Positions 21,526 through 29,474 of a stretch of DNA of 40,535 nucleotides are shown here, in pieces. Position 1 is the stretch's first letter. Every line of letters starts with the position of its first letter. Source of the stretch: a phage. The notes beneath the pieces are model-generated. The model was not told where the DNA came from, ran no database searches, and saw nothing but the letters and a program-made list of their open reading frames with translations. A program made the translations under genes and the position numbers. The DNA lies in NCBI GenBank assembly GCA_032185465.1, contig GCA_032185465.1_4549.1; one strand, written 5' to 3'.

Positions 21526-22032
21526 TCATCGCTCGCAGTCCTCAGCCGCAGGGTCGAACACTACGTTATCATTGATGTCTTCCACCTTCAGGTGGCGACC
21601 TGCCGCATAGTTAACCTTGGCACATGCAGTAGCAACCTCAAGAGCTACAGCTTGCACAATTATTGCGCCTGTTTTAGCGTCAACTACCCAATATTCATCC
21701 TCTTCGTCTGCCTCTTCATCCTCAAACCAGACTACATCCAAGCCATTAGACACATCGTTATAAAGCGCCTCATAGATGCGAGCTTGTAGGATACGCGTTA
21801 CGTCCTTGGTTTCAGGCATCATCCCAGAGTCTTCGAACTCGTGGTCTATACCATCAGCAGCCATCACCGTAAAAATCTCGTGGTAATAGTGCGGAACTTG
21901 ACCGTCTACGGCCTCATGCAGCGCATCGCTGTAGTCATCATCTTGAGTCAGGTGGTAGTACTGAATACGCTCGATAAATGCCTCAACGGTTGCAGCCAGC
22001 AGCTCATAGTATGCGTTAGCGTTACGTTCCAT
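21526..22032 (-). CDS. ocr: Ocr-like anti-restriction DNA-mimic protein (gp0.3) with about 50-aa C-terminal extension
   Basis: 168 aa; [45 protein letters not shown] colinear with T7 Ocr, acidic stretch follows; first gene after the host-type promoters. Confidence 0.85.
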
Positions 22033-22040
22033 AGTTATAT

Positions 22041-22110
22041 CCTCTCAGTTGTTAGTGACTATCAGTCAGGGCCTTCAGATGTAGACTCAAAGACCCTGTA
22101 GTTAATCACT
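22041..22110 (-). repeat. 70-bp conserved leader element, copy 1 (R0.3-like hairpin upstream of ocr)
   Basis: Same element as 21219-21289; the preceding GCTCTTTAACAATCTGG block (minus strand) is conserved with the T7 early leader as I recall it. Confidence 0.6.
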
Positions 22111-22226
22111 GTCGGCGCACATTAAGAGTTTATCCAGATTGTTAAAGAGCATTCCCTTCAGTCAGAGGACTTCAGGTAGACCGTTTCAGTGTTGGTCGTC
22201 ACCGTTGTTTCGTGTTGATGTGGTAC

Positions 22227-22256
22227 ATACTACTTTAAGTCGGTACATCTTGTCAA
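22227..22256 (-). promoter_or_regulatory. host sigma70-type early promoter (T7 A2/A3-like): TTGACA-18-TAGTAT
   Basis: Minus strand TTGACAAGATGTACCGACTTAAAGTAGTATGTACCACAT; the -10/+1 context GTACCACAT matches recalled T7 A3. Confidence 0.55.
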
Positions 22257-22368
22257 CTACTTTCTGTCATCTGCCTGTTGTTCGTATGACTTATCAGGCT
22301 GTCTACTTAACCGGGATGACCCGGCGTCTTCACTATCCGGTTGTTGCCGTGTCGTGTTGACGGAAGCT

Positions 22369-22397
22369 ATTAAGCCATAGTCTGGACCTGTAGTCAA
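22369..22397 (-). promoter_or_regulatory. candidate host sigma70-type early promoter (A1 position): TTGACT-17-CTTAAT
   Basis: Perfect -35, weak -10; followed by CCGGTTAAGTAGACAGCCTGATAAGTC, nearly identical to the recalled T7 post-A1 region. Confidence 0.4.
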
Positions 22398-22554
22398 TAG
22401 GTAATCTTAAATAATATTGATTAAGCTATCGTCGGCCCCATAGTGACTAAGAGGATATAGTCTTTGACTAACATGTTTAAGACCTTAAGTCTATAGCTTT
22501 GTGTCTATTAACTGTGGGTCTATGACCGTAGGTGTTGGTGTCTTATGGTTGATA

Positions 22555-22645
22555 CTGTAGGTTAGTTAGACTGTAGGTTGTAGGACTGTAGGTTGTAGGA
22601 CTGTAGGTTGTAGGACTGTAGGTTGTAGGACTGTAGGTTGTAGGA
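22555..22645. repeat. tandem array: 5 perfect copies of 15-bp unit ctgtaggttgtagga plus one degenerate copy
   Basis: Direct reading of 22555-22645; lies just inside the left genome end, like the short repeats next to the T7 terminal repeat. Confidence 0.9.
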
Positions 22646-22649
22646 CCTA

Positions 22650-22867
22650 TGGTTATACAGATAGAGACTCAGAGACAGACCCATAGCCCCTACCTATCGT
22701 CCTGACCTCCAGCCATAGCCTAGACCTATCGTTGACCTAACGTCTTGACCATCGGTCCAACCTTATGATAGACTGGCTGTGACTGCAAGGAGTAGTAACG
22801 GGTAGGGCCTTTGGTCTTGACTTAAAGAGGGCCTATGGGGGAGACTTGAGGTTATTGAACTGTGAGA
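22650..22867 (-). repeat. candidate genome left terminus and direct terminal repeat (concatemer junction near 22867)
   Basis: Minus strand from 22867 reads TCTCACAGTTCAATAACCTCAAGTCTCCCCCATAGGCCCTCTTTAAG, matching the conserved T7/T3 left-end sequence as I recall it. Repeat length and inner boundary are not determinable here. Confidence 0.4.
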
Positions 22868-23106
22868 TGTGGTCTCAAACTTTTGGTCCAAAACTCATCG
22901 TCACTACTGTAGGCCACAGCTACTGTAGGTCAAGGACCGTAGGTCAGGCGACACTAGGATAGACCAATAAGTAGGATGACCCTAAGTGAGCTTCTATTAA
23001 GGTGTTACCTAAAGTCCTTGACTACAGTAGCTAAGGTCAGTAGAGTGAGTCTTTATCCACGTACTGACCTTAGGTCTTCCGCTCATGAATCGTTACCATG
23101 ATTGCG

Positions 23107-23562: not shown

Positions 23563-25329
23563 CTAGTGGAACGTAACGTAGGACCCTAGTCCCAGCTCGT
23601 CGTCCGTATCGTGAGTTACCCGGACCCCATTGTCCCAGAACTCAGTGTGGATGGACTCGAAGCCTTTCCGTGGGTTCTCCATCTGTTCCTCCAGCCACTC
23701 CTCAGTGACTTCACGTTCGCCTTTGTTGGCATCCTTAGCCATAGACTCAACGAAGAACTGCACACCGATAGCCAGCGCATCAAGTCGGTCATCGTGTGCC
23801 AATGCTCCACGTTCACGAGAGATACGTGTCATCTGGTAGAAGAGAGAGTAGATAGGATTACGAACACCATCCTTATCAGAGGCAGACTGGTAATCTTGGA
23901 CGATAGCAGCAGCGTTAACGATAAGTCGGTGAGACCCCATGATAGGCTCCAGAACGTCACAGATGCGGAGTTCCTTCTGACCCTTACTCTTCACTTCAGT
24001 TACAGCAGCAGGATGAATACGGGAAGCTACAGGCTTGAATAGCTCAAGGTACATACCATCACCGAAGTTACCCTCAATGACGTATTCGTTGACCTTCCAC
24101 TTACGACCAATCTTAGCCAAGGCTTCCAGCGTAGAGTCTTCATAGCCACCTCGCATACCGCCAACTTCCATAGCGAAGATGTAGCCGTTTAGCTGGTACA
24201 GTACCGCATAACCAGTTTCATCCTTACCACGACCACTAGGGTCAATGACTAGAATCTTCTGGGTGTATGAGCTGAAGGCAGAACCTACAGTCTGATACGT
24301 GTGGTATGAGTCACCCATGAGTCCAACGTTAGGAACGTCCTCACGCTTGTTCTGAGGGTTAGGAAGCCATTGGTATATCATTGGGCTAGACGCTTGGTCC
24401 AAGTCTGCTACGATAAGGTCACGGAGCTTCAGAGGGTACTTCTCGGCATCACTCAGGTTAGGGTTAAGCATGAACTGTAGAGCGAAGCCAGCTTTGCCAT
24501 AGGACAACTCACGTTCCTTCAGGTCCGTATCATCGAATCGTACTTCATCGGTAGGACGCCAGTAGAAGGACTCAGGGTCCTCTTCCAGCTCTGCCTGAAG
24601 CATAGGAGCCAGACGGTCGCCGTAAGACTGCCAGTCCTTCTTATCACGTGGATAACGAGCAGGCCAGATAGTAGTGGTGTATCCACGGCCTTCCAGCTCA
24701 CGATACAAGGTCATCTCATTCTGAGGAGTACCCAGATAGATGATTGTACCTCCCGGCTTCAGGATAGCGTCGAACTCTTTCACAAGCTCTGACAGACGGT
24801 CTCGTGCGGCCTGAGTCGCTGAGTTGTTCGGAACCTCCACGTCATCAGCAATCAGGATGTCAGCACGACTACCAGTCAGCTGACCAGTGATACCAACGGA
24901 CTTAACCGAAGGTGAGTGGTCTGGCTTAGCTGGCCCAACGTCAAAGCTGATAACAGCATCTCGCTGCCCCTGCTTAGGTTTGAGTTCCTGAAGCTGAGGC
25001 ATGAGGTCGATGATTCGCTTGATGAAGATGGAGTTCGCATCGGCTCGTTCCTTTGAGGCCGACACAATCATGAACTTCAAGTCTGGGTTGTTCCATAGCT
25101 TCCAGACCACAAAGCCACAGGTCAGAAACGACTTGCCAATACCACGGAAAGCCTGAAGGATGAAGCGGCGATTATCACCAGCAGCCAGCTTCTTACACAT
25201 ATCTATCTGGCAGCGGGTTGGAACCGGAAGGCTTAGTGCTTTCCAGAGAACGAAGATGAAGAACACGAAGTCGTCCCTCATCCTTTGGGTCATTTCTGCC
25301 TGTCTTTCAGCAGGTGTTTTCTTAGACAT
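23563..25329 (-). CDS. terminase large subunit, gp19-like
   Basis: 588 aa; near full-length colinearity with T7 gp19 ([116 protein letters not shown]). Confidence 0.98.
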
Positions 25330-25759
25330 AGAGTCCCTCCAGCATTAGGTCCCGGACAGCGATAGCCTCCTCTAGAGTGGGACGTGTTGTGCGCATATAG
25401 ACATTCCCGCGTTTAACCTGAATCCTATAACCATTCTGGTGACGGGTAACGCACTTCACTCCAGTCTTAGAGTCATAATGGCTACCAGTATTCCAAGTGT
25501 TTTCGGCGGCAGTAACGAGCCGTAAGTTACTTAAGGTATTATTGATGGGGTTCCTGTCGATGTGGTCTATTTGCATACCATGCGGTATAGGACCATTGGT
25601 TAGTTCCCATATCACACGGTGTGCCCGCTTACTGCCTAGACTTCGTGTCTGTACTATCCAATATCCCATCCGACTTAATGTCCCCACAGGCTTTCCAGTC
25701 CTAACGGAGACCAGACCGGAGGGACTCGCCGGGTCCACTTTGTAGTAATCACTTAACAC
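25322..25759 (-). CDS. HNH homing endonuclease with C-terminal AP2-like DNA-binding domain
   Basis: 145 aa; [41 protein letters not shown] then [30 protein letters not shown] start; overlaps the Rz stop and the terminase start. No T7 gene lies between 18.5 and 19. Confidence 0.85.
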
Positions 25760-26186
25760 CTTGGAGCCTCCTTATTGTGTCCTGAAGCGCCTTCTCCTTA
25801 AGGTCTGCCTCCTGAGTTATTCGGATAAGACTTTTAGAAGTTTCTGGGTGTAGTTCGACTCTACCATTAGGGAAGCATCGACTGATATCCGACTCGGTGA
25901 GACCTGAGGTGTTGACTTTGACGCGCAGCCGCTTATTGTCAGACTGAAGGTCAGCAATAATCCTATCAGTGCTGCCTTCCAACGAGGACATTTCGTCCTG
26001 AAACCGTTTGGACACTTTGTTGACTTCAGCTTGGACAGCAAGCCTTGTATCTTCCGATGCCTTAAGATTCGAGGTGTATTCTGCATTGACCTTAGCCTCC
26101 CACTTATTGTTAGCGGTGTGGTAGCCACCAGCAAACATCACTGCTGCAAGTAACCACGGAGCCGCTCTCTTTAAAAATTCGAGCAT
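25749..26186 (-). CDS. i-spanin (Rz, gp18.5-like)
   Basis: 145 aa; N-terminal membrane anchor then coiled-coil-like charged region; after small terminase, with embedded Rz1. Confidence 0.85.
   Translation of the reverse strand: MLEFLKRAAPWLLAAVMFAGGYHTANNKWEAKVNAEYTSNLKASEDTRLAVQAEVNKVSKRFQDEMSSLEGSTDRIIADLQSDNKRLRVKVNTSGLTESDISRCFPNGRVELHPETSKSLIRITQEADLKEKALQDTIRRLQGVK
25817..26086 (-). CDS. o-spanin (Rz1, gp18.7-like) embedded out of frame in Rz
   Basis: PRWKAALIGLLLTFSLTISGCAS... with lipobox LTISGC and C-terminal SLMVE motif, colinear with recalled T7 gp18.7. Start set to ATG 26086; track ORF extends to 26134. Confidence 0.8.
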   Translation of the reverse strand: MQNTPRILRHRKIQGLLSKLKSTKCPNGFRTKCPRWKAALIGLLLTFSLTISGCASKSTPQVSPSRISVDASLMVESNYTQKLLKVLSE

Positions 26187-26873: not shown

Positions 26874-29405
26874 TCACTTAGACATAACAGCTAATGCTTC
26901 CTGCATACGCTTAATAGTACGCCGCATCAACGCAGCCTCTAATATCAGTACTTCCTCGTAACGAATACCGTAGCGGGAACCTGCTGGTGTAATCAGTTTA
27001 CGAGAGCCATCGGCATCTTCCTCGTATACATCATCCCAACTGTCGAAGCACAGGAAGCCATAGCGATGTGCATCTATACCGTGACGTTCGAAGGCCTCCT
27101 TAGCTCGCTGTGCGATGATGCCGAAGTGCCATCTAGCTGAGTCTGCACCCTTCTCCTCAATTCGGTCCAAGTACTGAAACTGCACAAAGTCAACTTCAGA
27201 CCAAGCATCCAGTAAAGCATCTGAGATATTAAGGGGCTCTGTTTTATCCCTAGCATCTGAGACAACAGTGAATGCTGCTTGAGTAAAACCGCCAGACCAT
27301 GTTCGACTTGCGGAACCTAATGCGTATGTATTAGTACTATCTGGGGTCATTGCATTAGAACCTAACTGCAAATAACCTGTGCTACTGGTAGGAAGACGCA
27401 CGTTACCGTTGGTGAGTGATACTGTCCGAGAAGTACCATCAGAAGTAAATAGGCGAACTTGAGAAGAAGTACCCCCGCCTACAGCTAATGACACAGCACC
27501 ATCCCCAAGCATTCTGTACTTATCAGCCGAGGTAAGAACGCCTGACGGAAGTGACATGGACTTAATCCACCATTCGAACCTACCGGACATACTGCCTATG
27601 TACTGTCCTAATGCAGGAGCGTGCACTACGTTGCTATTACTAGTGCCGTCAATAGTAGCTGCATCGGTAATAGTACTAGCAGAGCTGAGAAGGTCATTTC
27701 TACTACCAGGGTGCTTTACCTCTACGAAGTTACGGGTAGAGCCGGATTCGAAAGTAATAACACCTGTAGCACTGTAGCTAGGAAATACAGACGCATAGTT
27801 GTTATTAGCTGTACCTATAAAGCGCGCAATTGTAGCAGTCTGCCCTTGTCCTAAAGAGTTAGTACCATCACATCCTGACATAAGCACATTATTTATGACG
27901 TTATCAGACCCCTCTACGGTAACACCATGAGCCTGTCTAGCATCAGAAGTTGAGTAATCTACTAGCACGTCTGAGATTAAGTTCGTACTTCCTTTGCCTG
28001 CAACAACCGCTGCATACTTAGGGTTATTAGCCATCACACCCTTGATAAGGTTATTAGAAGGAGCTATTGGCCCTTCAGTGCCGTTGTAAGTTACATGCTG
28101 GCAATCTGCCCCTATAACATTACTTACTATGTTATAACTGGCTGTACCTTTCAGCTCTACGGCTCCGAAATTAGGGTAGTTCTTAGCAATGACGTTATCT
28201 ATGAGGGAGTTAACTGAGGAGTTAGCAAGTACGCATCCGGCTGCCTTATTAGTAGCATAGCCGGAGTAGCTACCTCGAATGCCTTTAATCATAAGCCCAT
28301 TAGGTTGCGCACCATTAGGGTATGCTATTAAACTGAAACCAGTACCTTTAACGTTTGAGAAGTTAACGTCACTTACAGTAACATCACTGCCACCAGCAAG
28401 AGATACCTGCTGTCCCTGAGTAGTATCAGTCGCCTTATTACTTTCTACCGTAATATTACTTAAGCGACCTGCACGTAGATTGTTAAATACTAAGTAGTTA
28501 CCTGTACTGGAACGGTGACTTAGAACGCCACTACCCCTACCGTCTAAGTTACAGTAATTACTATTAATACCAGAACTAGAGAATACACCGTCTGATGCTA
28601 CGACAGCTTTTTGAGAATTTAGTGAAGCAGCTATATTCTCCGTACTATCTGTTACACCATCCCCTTTAGCACCCCAGCCTCGAACATCACCCTCATCACG
28701 CCATCTTGCCATCTGCAATTCCGGGTAGAGTATTGCACCTTCCGGGTTTGAAATCTGACTTCTTAAAGCAGCATCACCAACACTAACCCACGCACCTAAT
28801 CCAATCCCACCGGAAGTTTCAGGAGTTGAACCAGCAGGAACGTTCTTTGGAAGCGTACCATCCCAGCGGTAATAATCACCATCCTCTTCCCATAGCAGGA
28901 CCTCGCTCCATGTTGTAACGTTGTAGCCTTTCTCGAAGGAGCGACGGGTAATATAGCCAATTAGACCAGCTTCCCTGATACTCTCAGCGATTCGGCGTGC
29001 TTCGTCCTCGCTATCCTTAGCGTTGCCAGCAGAGCTACCAGCAGCATCGGCATATTCCTTCGCTAAGTCAACCGTTTGGTCTCGACCTTCTTCTGCAATA
29101 TGGATAGCCTGAAGCTCTGAATTGGTCAGGTCACTAGCTGTCAACACTGAGCCATTCCTGAAGTCTACCACTAAGTCAGTTCCAGTCTGACGGTGAATAC
29201 GAACGATGTCGAAACCTGATTGGTCAACCAACATCTCAATCATCGTTGGGTTAAGGAATCGGTAATCTCGACCAACTTCCAGTACACGGTTCAGGGTAGG
29301 GTTAGAGCTATTCACCAGCGTAACAACAACAAACGTTCTGGCTAGGTAGTCGAACTCAATCCTGTACTGAGTGTTTCCTGAAGGGAATTGTGTAATCGTG
29401 GACAT
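26874..29405 (-). CDS. tailspike: T7 gp17-type N-terminal adaptor, central enzymatic (beta-helix-like) domain, C-terminal self-cleaving chaperone
   Basis: 843 aa; N-terminal 150 aa colinear with T7 gp17 (FDYLARTFVVVTL, VDFRNGSVLTASDL, AIHIAEEGRD). Central region is Gly/Ser/Asn/Thr-rich as in depolymerase beta-helices. C-terminus has the SDARDK auto-cleavage motif of the peptidase S74 chaperone. Confidence 0.93.
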   Translation of the reverse strand: MSTITQFPSGNTQYRIEFDYLARTFVVVTLVNSSNPTLNRVLEVGRDYRFLNPTMIEMLVDQSGFDIVRIHRQTGTDLVVDFRNGSVLTASDLTNSELQAIHIAEEGRDQTVDLAKEYADAAGSSAGNAKDSEDEARRIAESIREAGLIGYITRRSFEKGYNVTTWSEVLLWEEDGDYYRWDGTLPKNVPAGSTPETSGGIGLGAWVSVGDAALRSQISNPEGAILYPELQMARWRDEGDVRGWGAKGDGVTDSTENIAASLNSQKAVVASDGVFSSSGINSNYCNLDGRGSGVLSHRSSTGNYLVFNNLRAGRLSNITVESNKATDTTQGQQVSLAGGSDVTVSDVNFSNVKGTGFSLIAYPNGAQPNGLMIKGIRGSYSGYATNKAAGCVLANSSVNSLIDNVIAKNYPNFGAVELKGTASYNIVSNVIGADCQHVTYNGTEGPIAPSNNLIKGVMANNPKYAAVVAGKGSTNLISDVLVDYSTSDARQAHGVTVEGSDNVINNVLMSGCDGTNSLGQGQTATIARFIGTANNNYASVFPSYSATGVITFESGSTRNFVEVKHPGSRNDLLSSASTITDAATIDGTSNSNVVHAPALGQYIGSMSGRFEWWIKSMSLPSGVLTSADKYRMLGDGAVSLAVGGGTSSQVRLFTSDGTSRTVSLTNGNVRLPTSSTGYLQLGSNAMTPDSTNTYALGSASRTWSGGFTQAAFTVVSDARDKTEPLNISDALLDAWSEVDFVQFQYLDRIEEKGADSARWHFGIIAQRAKEAFERHGIDAHRYGFLCFDSWDDVYEEDADGSRKLITPAGSRYGIRYEEVLILEAALMRRTIKRMQEALAVMSK

Positions 29406-29451
29406 TATGCCTCCTTTGTTATTTAAACGGAGACCTATGGTAGCGCCTCCC

Positions 29452-29474
29452 GTTTCCTATAGTGATAGTTTAGT
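29452..29474 (-). promoter_or_regulatory. phage RNAP promoter (phi17-like): ACTAAACTATCACTATAGGAAAC
   Basis: Consensus match overlapping the gp16 stop, upstream of the tailspike gene. Confidence 0.8.

Follow-up and report, generated by a model that had tools for sequence, protein, structure and literature searches.

Gene Organization and Genome Context

A single open reading frame (ORF) with an ATG start, coding for 843 amino acids plus a stop codon, was found to occupy exactly positions 26874–29405 on the minus strand of the window, the term used here for the whole 40,535 bp stretch of phage DNA that was analyzed (contig GCA_032185465.1_4549.1). The strand had not been given in the initial annotation of this locus, which was made from the sequence alone. 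The product has a predicted precursor mass of 90.2 kDa. The ORF is real, and the domain and composition signals which it carries are not chance patterns. A ribosome-binding site, AAGGAGG (29410–29416, minus strand), lies 4 nt before the start codon, and directly upstream of the gene a phage RNA-polymerase promoter is present at 29452–29469 (minus strand) as an exact copy of ACTATCACTATAGGAAAC. This promoter overlaps the end of gene 16 and is the counterpart of T7 phi17. Across the window, ten matches to the promoter were identified, each of them on the minus strand, compared with none expected from shuffled sequences (with up to three mismatches allowed).

The gene occupies the gene 17 position, between a gp16 homologue and a T7-type holin, within a gene order (gp15, gp16, tailspike, holin, gp18, Rz, and terminase) that is that of T7 and K1F. 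The remainder of the window is 92–95% identical to Kayfunavirus genomes, and the full-length tailspike gene was found at a nucleotide identity of at least 95% in 16 sequenced genomes of this genus. The predicted protein matched PHROG 14895 (“tail spike protein”) over aa 209–843 with 1288 bits, while an NCBIfam search with the 843 aa sequence returned no family match. Most GenBank copies of the gene are labeled merely as “hypothetical protein,” a label which the identity described here corrects.

N-terminal Modules

The first module of the protein (aa 1–150; 28956–29405, minus strand) is a tail anchor of the T7 gp17 type on the basis of Pfam and PDB matches. The Pfam domain Phage_T7_tail (PF03906) was detected at aa 10–115 (E = 2e-15, 57 bits against a cut-off of 25.2), and N-terminal chains of T7 gp17 in the PDB (7boz, 8dsp, and 8e4g) matched aa 6–116. 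The initial annotation had described the N-terminal 150 residues as gp17-like; this was borne out for the portion covered by these matches, but detectable similarity ends near residue 116, and past it a helix is predicted at about aa 120–150. The modeled part of PDB entry 9vvr (131 residues, from the tail of phage E1004) is 100% identical to the anchor over 130 aligned columns, and the module is ~90% conserved over dozens of Kayfunavirus spikes possessing differing enzymes. When compared with T7 gp17 (553 aa), similarity was found to end at residue 116–122, with no homology to the shaft and tip of that fiber. As the protein beyond this point consists of a lyase and a chaperone, it is to be regarded as a tailspike and not as a T7-type fiber, in agreement with what had been proposed.

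Between the anchor and the enzyme a Tail_spike_N domain (TSP1/gp66-type N-terminal domain; PF18668) was identified at aa 156–211 (28773–28940, minus strand), with an E-value of 3e-19 and 69 bits against a cut-off of 25. Its PDB matches include TSP1 (4oj5), TSP3 (6nw9 and 5w6f), and TSP4 (5w6h) of phage CBA120. Almost every Kayfunavirus gp17 homologue was found to possess the domain, including P0045, a protein of 1064 aa with endosialidase Pfam domains. It constitutes a fourth module, which the initial annotation had missed. An LEA_4 Pfam match within the tailspike was weak and below its cut-off, and was set aside as an artifact of low-complexity helix.

Central Body, a Probable K5 Lyase

The body of the protein (aa 245–715; 27261–28673, minus strand) was assigned as a K5 (heparosan) lyase from its match to PDB 2x3h, its identity to KflA, and AlphaFold/Foldseek analysis. 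It is laid out as a right-handed parallel beta-helix (~aa 240–565) followed by an intertwined trimeric stalk (~aa 566–715). The K5 lyase structure 2x3h matched aa 242–716 with an E-value of 2e-283, and aa 245–715 were identical to KflA of phage K5 (Y10025) at 446 of 471 positions (94.7%). The central region had been noted as rich in Gly, Ser, Asn, and Thr, and these residues do make up 43% of aa 245–715, compared with 28–30% of the N-terminal parts and 15% of the C-terminal domain.

An AlphaFold monomer model was built from an alignment of 34 sequences. Its mean pLDDT was 61.9, and usable output was confined to the beta-helix and portions of the chaperone, the intertwined trimeric stalk not being reproduced by the monomer. 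Values of pLDDT reached 80–93 over ~aa 240–550, with regular beta-strand rungs at aa 249–563, while they were below 50 at aa 1–154 and 566–724, as is expected for the regions of an obligate trimer; the folds of the anchor and the stalk rest for this reason on homology to solved structures. A Foldseek comparison of the confident part of the model, of the kind proposed in the initial annotation, gave 2x3h as its best match (E = 2e-43; target-based TM 0.68); ranked below it were other tailspikes of the beta-helix type as well as alginate epimerase/lyases and polygalacturonases. The proposal of a central right-handed beta-helix depolymerase was thus confirmed by both sequence identity to a crystallized enzyme and predicted structure. 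A Pfam match to Pect-lyase_RHGA_epim fell below its cut-off and was discarded as a weak echo of the beta-helix.

KflA is a trimeric beta-helical lyase in which a triple-stranded beta-helix or beta-prism follows the central helix (PMC8822698), and its substrate, lyase mechanism, and processing are covered in several publications (PMC5380687; PMC7885116; PMC8822698). Alignment to KflA also places a putative beta-elimination site in the segment aa 417–440 (28086–28157, minus strand), which contains E417, K419, and Y440. With an offset of +211 these residues correspond to E206, K208, and Y229 of KflA, and none of the three varies among 15 lyase-module proteins, the most distant of which are ~50% identical. 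The primary papers on KflA include those of Clarke et al. in 2000 and Thompson et al. in 2010, and the latter reportedly proposed E206, K208, and Y229 as its beta-elimination residues. We take this assignment to be a lead toward E417, K419, and Y440 as the catalytic site of the tailspike. A full-text search of the literature for KflA together with these residues found nothing relevant.

C-terminal Chaperone and Predicted Self-cleavage

The C-terminal module (aa 716–843; 26877–27260, minus strand) is an intramolecular chaperone domain (Peptidase_S74/CIMCD) according to Pfam and PDB matches. The motif SDARDK (aa 716–721; 27243–27260, minus strand) occurs once in the tailspike, at the exact start of the Peptidase_S74 match (PF13884, aa 716–776; E = 5e-14, 52.7 bits against a cut-off of 22), and the initial annotation, which had pointed to this motif as the mark of an S74-type chaperone, proved correct. 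Matches in the PDB comprised 3gud (E = 1.4e-23), 3gw6 (E = 1.7e-20), and 4uw8 (E = 9.5e-10). The domain aligns with the chaperones of GA-1, endoNF, and T5 pb1 with the serine and the lysine in register, and within this alignment SDARDK corresponds to SDERHK at the very start of the GA-1 neck-appendage chaperone chain (3gud, residue 1) and to the S911A-mutated site of endoNF (3gw6). S716, D717, R719, and K721 were invariant in 15 homologues, and S716 and K721 align with the Ser911/Lys916 catalytic dyad of the endosialidase. This dyad has been described for endoNF (PMC8326128), and the equivalent in T5 pb1 is Ser1264/Lys1269 (PMC4690869). Furthermore, the chain sequence of 2x3h stops at the residue aligned with S716.

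SDARDK is thus the predicted site of autoproteolysis, S716 being the predicted nucleophile and the first residue of the released chaperone and K721 the predicted general base. The chaperone would comprise 128 aa (14.8 kDa), and the mature subunit without it is predicted to have a mass of 75.4 kDa. The K5 lyases belong to the four families for which the auto-cleaving chaperone was first defined (PMC8326128), and a review tabulates the K5 lyase of phage K1-5 at 67 kDa with a mature form of 52 kDa (PMC5380687).

Proposed Function and Host

Taken together, we consider the product of this gene, with a probability of roughly 0.93, to be the tailspike of a K1F-like Kayfunavirus which joins a gp17-type anchor, a Tail_spike_N domain, a KflA-type K5 lyase, and a self-cleaving chaperone. 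From its sequence, the tailspike can be expected with high probability to degrade the K5 (heparosan) capsule of E. coli and to release the chaperone that assists its own folding. Its mode of attack is predicted by homology to be beta-elimination, that of a lyase, and not hydrolysis. We infer lyase activity, the K5 specificity of this particular allele, cleavage of the chaperone, and host range from homologues. A specificity for K5 heparosan would follow from the near-identity to KflA, and this specificity in turn suggests a K5-encapsulated E. coli as host, which agrees with the capsulated, enterobacterial-type host anticipated in the initial annotation. That annotation had left the target as either a capsule or an O-antigen and had held the specificity of the enzyme to be unreadable from the sequence. 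The capsule was upheld, as K5 heparosan, while an O-antigen-specific spike was rejected given the near-identity to a K5 lyase, and the specificity turned out to be readable by comparison with KflA. For phage vB_EcoM_SHAK7854, which is 97% identical, no host capsule type was found in the portion of the published host-range text that could be consulted.

The protein would act as the single receptor-binding protein of this K1F-like, T7-family podovirus, its late transcription being driven from its own phage-polymerase promoter. As in T7 gp17, residues 1 to ~150 are likely to anchor the trimer in the tail where gp11 and gp12 meet, with the Tail_spike_N domain (aa 156–211) probably serving as a small link from the anchor to the enzyme. 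The lyase body (aa 245–715) would cleave the K5 polymer by beta-elimination, as a result of which the phage could tunnel through the capsule to the outer membrane. The chaperone (aa 716–843) would drive the folding and trimerization of the intertwined C-terminal stalk and would then remove itself by autoproteolysis catalyzed by Ser716/Lys721, leaving a mature spike that is expected to be kinetically stable, at ~75 kDa per subunit.

Substitutions and Alternative Interpretations

Compared with KflA, the enzyme body carries 25 substitutions over 471 positions, with variant sites including a patch at aa 365–369 and positions 395, 412, 568, 580–581, and 613, the last of which corresponds to R402W in KflA numbering. 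It is conceivable, though improbable, that such allelic patches alter the substrate preference, for example toward a tolerance of modified heparosan or low-sulfated host heparan sulfate, or that the Tail_spike_N domain is a latent docking site. Were the preference altered, the virion-borne lyase could tether the phage to unsulfated heparan domains on the gut or urinary mucosa, an idea that resembles the locational targeting proposed for phage ES17. The partner of a latent docking site would be a second receptor-binding protein, and none was found to be encoded within the window.

It is also improbable that the protein has a KflA-like fold with a shifted or lost activity, in which case it would leave K5 uncut while binding heparosan, glycans resembling heparan, or some other acidic capsule, or would cut a related polysaccharide. 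The 25 substitutions, with some of them clustered at aa 365–369, 395, and 412, would allow for this, as would the precedent of the podophage ES17, whose fiber was reported to bind heparan sulfate with no depolymerase activity detected and has a structure distantly like that of the K5 lyase (PMC7885116). However, the resemblance of ES17 to KflA is remote, in contrast to that of the tailspike described here, and 94.7% identity is far above the level at which the specificity of tailspikes usually changes. Moreover, E417, K419, and Y440 are retained together with the surrounding strands even in proteins at 50% identity, and the aa 365–369 patch is also present in P0035, a cluster of 635 aa proteins which start with the KflA-type N-terminal peptide; the patch therefore represents an allele in circulation rather than a copy that has degenerated.

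A non-enzymatic fiber or adhesin, in which the beta-helix is structural only and the C-terminal domain stays attached, appears very unlikely. Beta-helix adhesins without activity do exist, and PfbA was among the distant fold matches, but the tailspike is a near-identical counterpart of an enzyme whose lyase activity has been demonstrated, has kept the proposed active-site residues, and carries an intact and invariant Ser-Lys dyad; the place of the K5 lyases among the founding families of the auto-cleaving chaperone (PMC8326128) and the reduction in mass of the K1-5 enzyme upon maturation (PMC5380687) also argue against a domain that stays attached. Finally, a K1-specific endosialidase tailspike like K1F gp17, which might be suspected from the ~95% identity of the N-terminal ~220 aa to P0045 and from a chaperone family named after endosialidases, was refuted by domain and PDB searches and is given practically no weight, as no endosialidase Pfam domain was found in the tailspike at E-values up to 1 (P0045 has PF12217, PF12218, PF12219, and PF12195), the whole of aa 242–716 matched the K5 lyase, and similarity to endoNF was limited to aa 683–839 (the chaperone with the strands immediately preceding it).

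The reading of this protein as a K5 lyase tailspike assigns a probable capsule type, E. coli K5, to the host of the phage. K5 is a common capsule of uropathogenic E. coli strains, and K5 lyases have been used to dissect how heparan sulfate is organized into domains and tested as anti-capsule therapeutics. The protein is one more natural allele of this enzyme, a small addition to the catalog, and the gene offers a clean textbook case of the exchange of receptor-binding modules. Its value is practical only, and it makes no open question testable.

Comparison with Known Tailspikes

The type of protein, its structure, and near-identical genes have already been published or deposited, and in this respect the tailspike is ordinary and known. 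Full-length similarity was found to the 843 aa tail spike of E. coli phage E1004 (PDB 9vvr_A, 1794 bits), to which the tailspike is ~95% identical. The PDB entry, released 2025-11-12 as “Structure of the bacteriophage E1004 tail,” has only ~131 N-terminal residues modeled; a full-text search of the literature for this entry found nothing, and one for the phage turned up a single citing preprint. The E1004 spike and its Kayfunavirus orthologues (among them vB_EcoP-R1, vB_EcoP-101120B2, vB_EcoM_SHAK7854, and OX461104) share the length, the four modules, and the genomic position of the tailspike at ~95–99% protein identity (up to 99.4% at the nucleotide level), and differ from it by allelic substitutions only, located mostly in the beta-helix. 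Compared with vB_EcoP-R1, identity is 93% in the enzyme body but 99% in both anchor and chaperone.

With respect to KflA of coliphage K5/K5A (Y10025; 2x3h), the tailspike shares not only the enzyme body but also the chaperone (94.5% identity) and the same putative catalytic E/K/Y residues, with the cleavage motif being SDARCK in KflA and SDARDK in the tailspike. The two differ in how they begin. KflA, at 632 aa, has a short N-terminal peptide (MAKLTKP...), whereas the tailspike carries ~244 aa of covalent gp17-type anchor and Tail_spike_N. In SP6/K1-5-type phages, the KflA-type peptide docks onto a separate adapter protein (PMC6872550).

The lyase-plus-chaperone cassette is also shared with the Gamaleyavirus (N4-like) “K5 lyase” proteins of UE-S5a/b, UE-M3, and UE-M6 and, at ~50–55% identity, with ElmA-like E. 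coli prophage tail proteins of 778/820 aa. UE-S5b matches the tailspike at 93% identity in the enzyme body and at 99% in the chaperone, but sequence is shared only from ~aa 185–205 onward, its N-terminal attachment module being unrelated, and the prophage forms likewise have their own, unrelated N-termini. Both groups of relatives have kept E417, K419, Y440, S716, and K721. Vectrevirus phages (K5A type) as well as Gamaleyavirus and E. coli prophages carry the cassette after N-termini of other kinds, with at least five different attachment modules preceding it in different phage families, a distribution that is a classic instance of receptor-binding-module shuffling.

Coliphage K1F is the type species of Kayfunavirus, and its gp17 (endoNF) has a comparable architecture, consisting of a gp17-type anchor, a Tail_spike_N domain, a capsule depolymerase, and an S74 chaperone with a Ser-Lys dyad. 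The N-terminal module of the tailspike is ~95% identical to that of P0045, a protein with this K1F architecture. However, the K1F enzyme is a sialidase beta-propeller plus beta-barrel which hydrolyzes polysialic acid (K1), whereas the tailspike described here carries in its place a beta-helix predicted to be a lyase of heparosan (K5).

Domain organization and predicted specificity of the tailspike

The tailspike gene was found to be a single ORF of 843 aa with an ATG start at 26874–29405 on the minus strand, exactly where the initial annotation had placed it, and a ribosome-binding site (AAGGAGG) was read 4 nt upstream. Three Pfam domains scored above their curated cut-offs: Phage_T7_tail (aa 10–115), corresponding to the T7 gp17-like N-terminus already proposed, Tail_spike_N (PF18668, aa 156–211), which had been missed, and Peptidase_S74 (aa 716–776). 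The previously noted richness in Gly, Ser, Asn and Thr was also evident, these residues making up 43% of aa 245–715 versus 28–30% of the N-terminal parts and 15% of the C-terminal domain.

A PDB sequence search matched aa 242–716 to KflA, the K5 (heparosan) lyase tailspike of coliphage K5/K5A (2x3h, E=2e-283). Compared with the GenBank KflA entry (Y10025), the enzyme body (aa 245–715) is identical at 446 of 471 positions (94.7%) and the chaperone (aa 716–843) at 121 of 128. KflA lacks the first ~244 residues of the tailspike and begins instead with a short docking peptide. The same search gave an end-to-end match (1794 bits) to the 843-aa 'tail spike protein' of PDB 9vvr, listed in the Foldseek output as 'Structure of the bacteriophage E1004 tail' (released 2025-11-12); this entry models just ~131 N-terminal spike residues, which are 100% identical to the query across 130 aligned columns.

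An AlphaFold2 monomer model (input alignment of 34 sequences) has a regular stack of beta-strands at ~aa 240–565 (pLDDT 80–93), and is poor at the anchor (aa 1–154) and stalk (aa 566–724), both obligate-trimer regions. The top structural match of the model was again 2x3h (E=2e-43), followed by the CBA120 and HK620 tailspikes, alginate epimerase/lyases, mannuronan C-5 epimerases and polygalacturonases, all of which are right-handed parallel beta-helices. The central domain is thus modelled as the beta-helical depolymerase originally proposed, and not as a non-enzymatic fibre. This agrees with the published account of KflA (PMC8822698), a trimeric lyase of beta-helical fold whose central helix is followed by a triple-stranded beta-helix or beta-prism.

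By near-identity to KflA, the tailspike is predicted to be a lyase with specificity for K5 heparosan. A capsulated enterobacterial host, as suggested initially, is supported; the statement that specificity could not be read from the sequence was the only one found to be incorrect. The KflA residues E206, K208 and Y229 were reportedly proposed as catalytic by Thompson et al. in 2010. With an alignment offset of +211 they fall on E417, K419 and Y440, where the residue types fit and which we take to be their counterparts. These three residues do not vary among 15 module-bearing proteins, a set that takes in relatives from E. coli prophages (778 and 820 aa, ~50% identity). It is strongly inferred that this allele would encode an active K5 lyase.

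The 25 substitutions in the enzyme body relative to KflA could be taken to indicate a binding-only or re-targeted variant, but this is unlikely given the 94.7% identity, the invariance of the key residues and the distribution of the most conspicuous variant patch. This patch, YPNGAQPNGL (aa 362–371; 28293–28322, minus strand), reads YPNDAPPDGL in KflA and in both further Kayfunavirus copies that were compared (vB_EcoP-R1 and the database homologue P0017), and is identical in a 635-aa protein cluster (P0035). As P0035 starts with a KflA-type N-terminal peptide, the patch appears to be a circulating functional allele. Its sharing with P0035 and difference from the other copies suggests recombination between lyase alleles inside the enzyme domain.

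C-terminal chaperone and predicted cleavage

Three intramolecular chaperone domains of known structure align with the last 128 residues of the tailspike: 3gud (GA-1 neck appendage, E=1.4e-23, chain starting SDERHK), 3gw6 (K1F endosialidase, S911A mutant) and 4uw8 (T5 pb1). SDARDK occurs once in the tailspike, at aa 716–721, and its S716 and K721 line up exactly with the catalytic Ser and Lys of the solved chaperones. Across the 15 aligned sequences S716, D717, R719 and K721 do not vary. The domain is therefore predicted to be of the self-cleaving S74 type first proposed. The Ser-Lys dyad, S911/K916 in the K1F endosialidase endoNF, needs correct trimer folding, and K5 lyases are among the four original families with this chaperone domain (PMC8326128; PMC4690869). 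Cleavage before S716 would convert a 90.2 kDa precursor to a 75.4 kDa mature chain and a 14.8 kDa fragment (predicted masses). Consistent with this, in two homologues, the 2x3h chain stops at the serine aligned with S716 and the K1-5 K5 lyase is tabulated with a 67 to 52 kDa mature form (PMC5380687).

The chaperone 3gw6 was also among the structural matches of the model. An endosialidase was rejected, as the tailspike has no endosialidase domain and its likeness to endoNF is limited to the chaperone region. A T7-type fibre was rejected as similarity to T7 gp17 ends at residue ~116.

Genome context and transcription

The ORF survey of the window revealed the T7 gene order, with all large ORFs on the minus strand (including capsid, portal, DNA polymerase, RNA polymerase and terminase) and a late block of gp11-gp12-gp13-gp14-gp15-gp16-tailspike-holin-gp18-Rz. 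The first 25 kb is 92–95% identical to many genomes of Kayfunavirus, the K1F-like genus of the Studiervirinae (Autographiviridae). On these grounds the window is assigned as a complete Kayfunavirus genome, circularly permuted and reverse-complemented, in which the tailspike ORF is the gene-17 equivalent. A stretch at ~22.0–23.5 kb with no ORFs of at least 120 aa and a locally reversed GC skew (+0.11 at 22001–23000) is probably the joined genome ends.

An exact ACTATCACTATAGGAAAC motif lies upstream of the tailspike at 29452–29469 (minus strand). It is predicted to be a promoter of the phage's own RNA polymerase because the ACTATCACTATAGG-type motif has 10 matches in the window (1458, 2445, 5266, 13810, 15112, 16875, 20195, 23446, 29452 and 37550), all on the coding minus strand, with none in shuffles. 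Between this promoter and the ribosome-binding site, an imperfect hairpin (AACGGGAG...CTCCGTTT, 29424–29450, minus strand) sits at the predicted transcript's 5' end and could, by analogy with T7 late mRNAs, serve as a stem for RNase III-type processing or for stabilisation.

The Rz gene (25749–26186, minus strand) contains an out-of-frame ORF (25817–26134, minus strand) with ...KAALIGLLLTFSLTISGCASKSTPQVSP..., a lipoprotein signal and lipobox; this is predicted to be the Rz1 (o-spanin) gene that T7-like phages typically carry nested within Rz. Between Rz and the large terminase gene, overlapping each by a few bases, is a 145-aa HNH_3 homing-endonuclease ORF with a GTG start (25322–25759, minus strand; Pfam E=1.6e-19). 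The insertion is present in 14 of 84 phage records matching that stretch, such as Citrobacter phage CR44b ('3.8A homing endonuclease'), and missing from vB_EcoP-R1, and is therefore a presence/absence polymorphism.

Distribution and module exchange

The full-length tailspike gene was found in 16 phage records at a nucleotide identity of at least 95%, the closest being Kayfunavirus OX461104 (99.4%). The N-terminal ~220 aa (anchor and Tail_spike_N) are shared at ~90% identity by dozens of Kayfunavirus spikes whose distal parts are entirely different; among these spikes is a 1064-aa protein (P0045) with endosialidase domains. Conversely, the lyase and chaperone cassette occurs in proteins of 632–640 aa with the KflA-type peptide (Vectrevirus and K5A type), in 784-aa Gamaleyavirus proteins annotated 'K5 lyase', in phage proteins of 755/756 and 1012 aa, and in the 778- and 820-aa prophage proteins. 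The junction varies by lineage (~aa 185–205 for Gamaleyavirus, ~aa 245 for KflA). This arrangement of one cassette behind differing N-termini points to horizontal exchange of receptor-binding modules, a process which is well documented (PMC6872550).

In the homologues P0018, P0019 and P0031 (755–756 aa) and P0033 (1012 aa) the cassette is 84–92% identical and follows two further N-terminal modules, one starting MATTPTNKPIPSEDPRDLKF... and having Tail_spike_N, the other of ~400 aa with no Pfam domain.

Most database copies of the gene are labelled only 'hypothetical protein', and the practical value of the assignment is limited to host-capsule prediction and better annotation. Public databases and papers already contain the protein type, a crystal structure, a cryo-EM tail structure whose spike is ~95% identical, and many near-identical genes.
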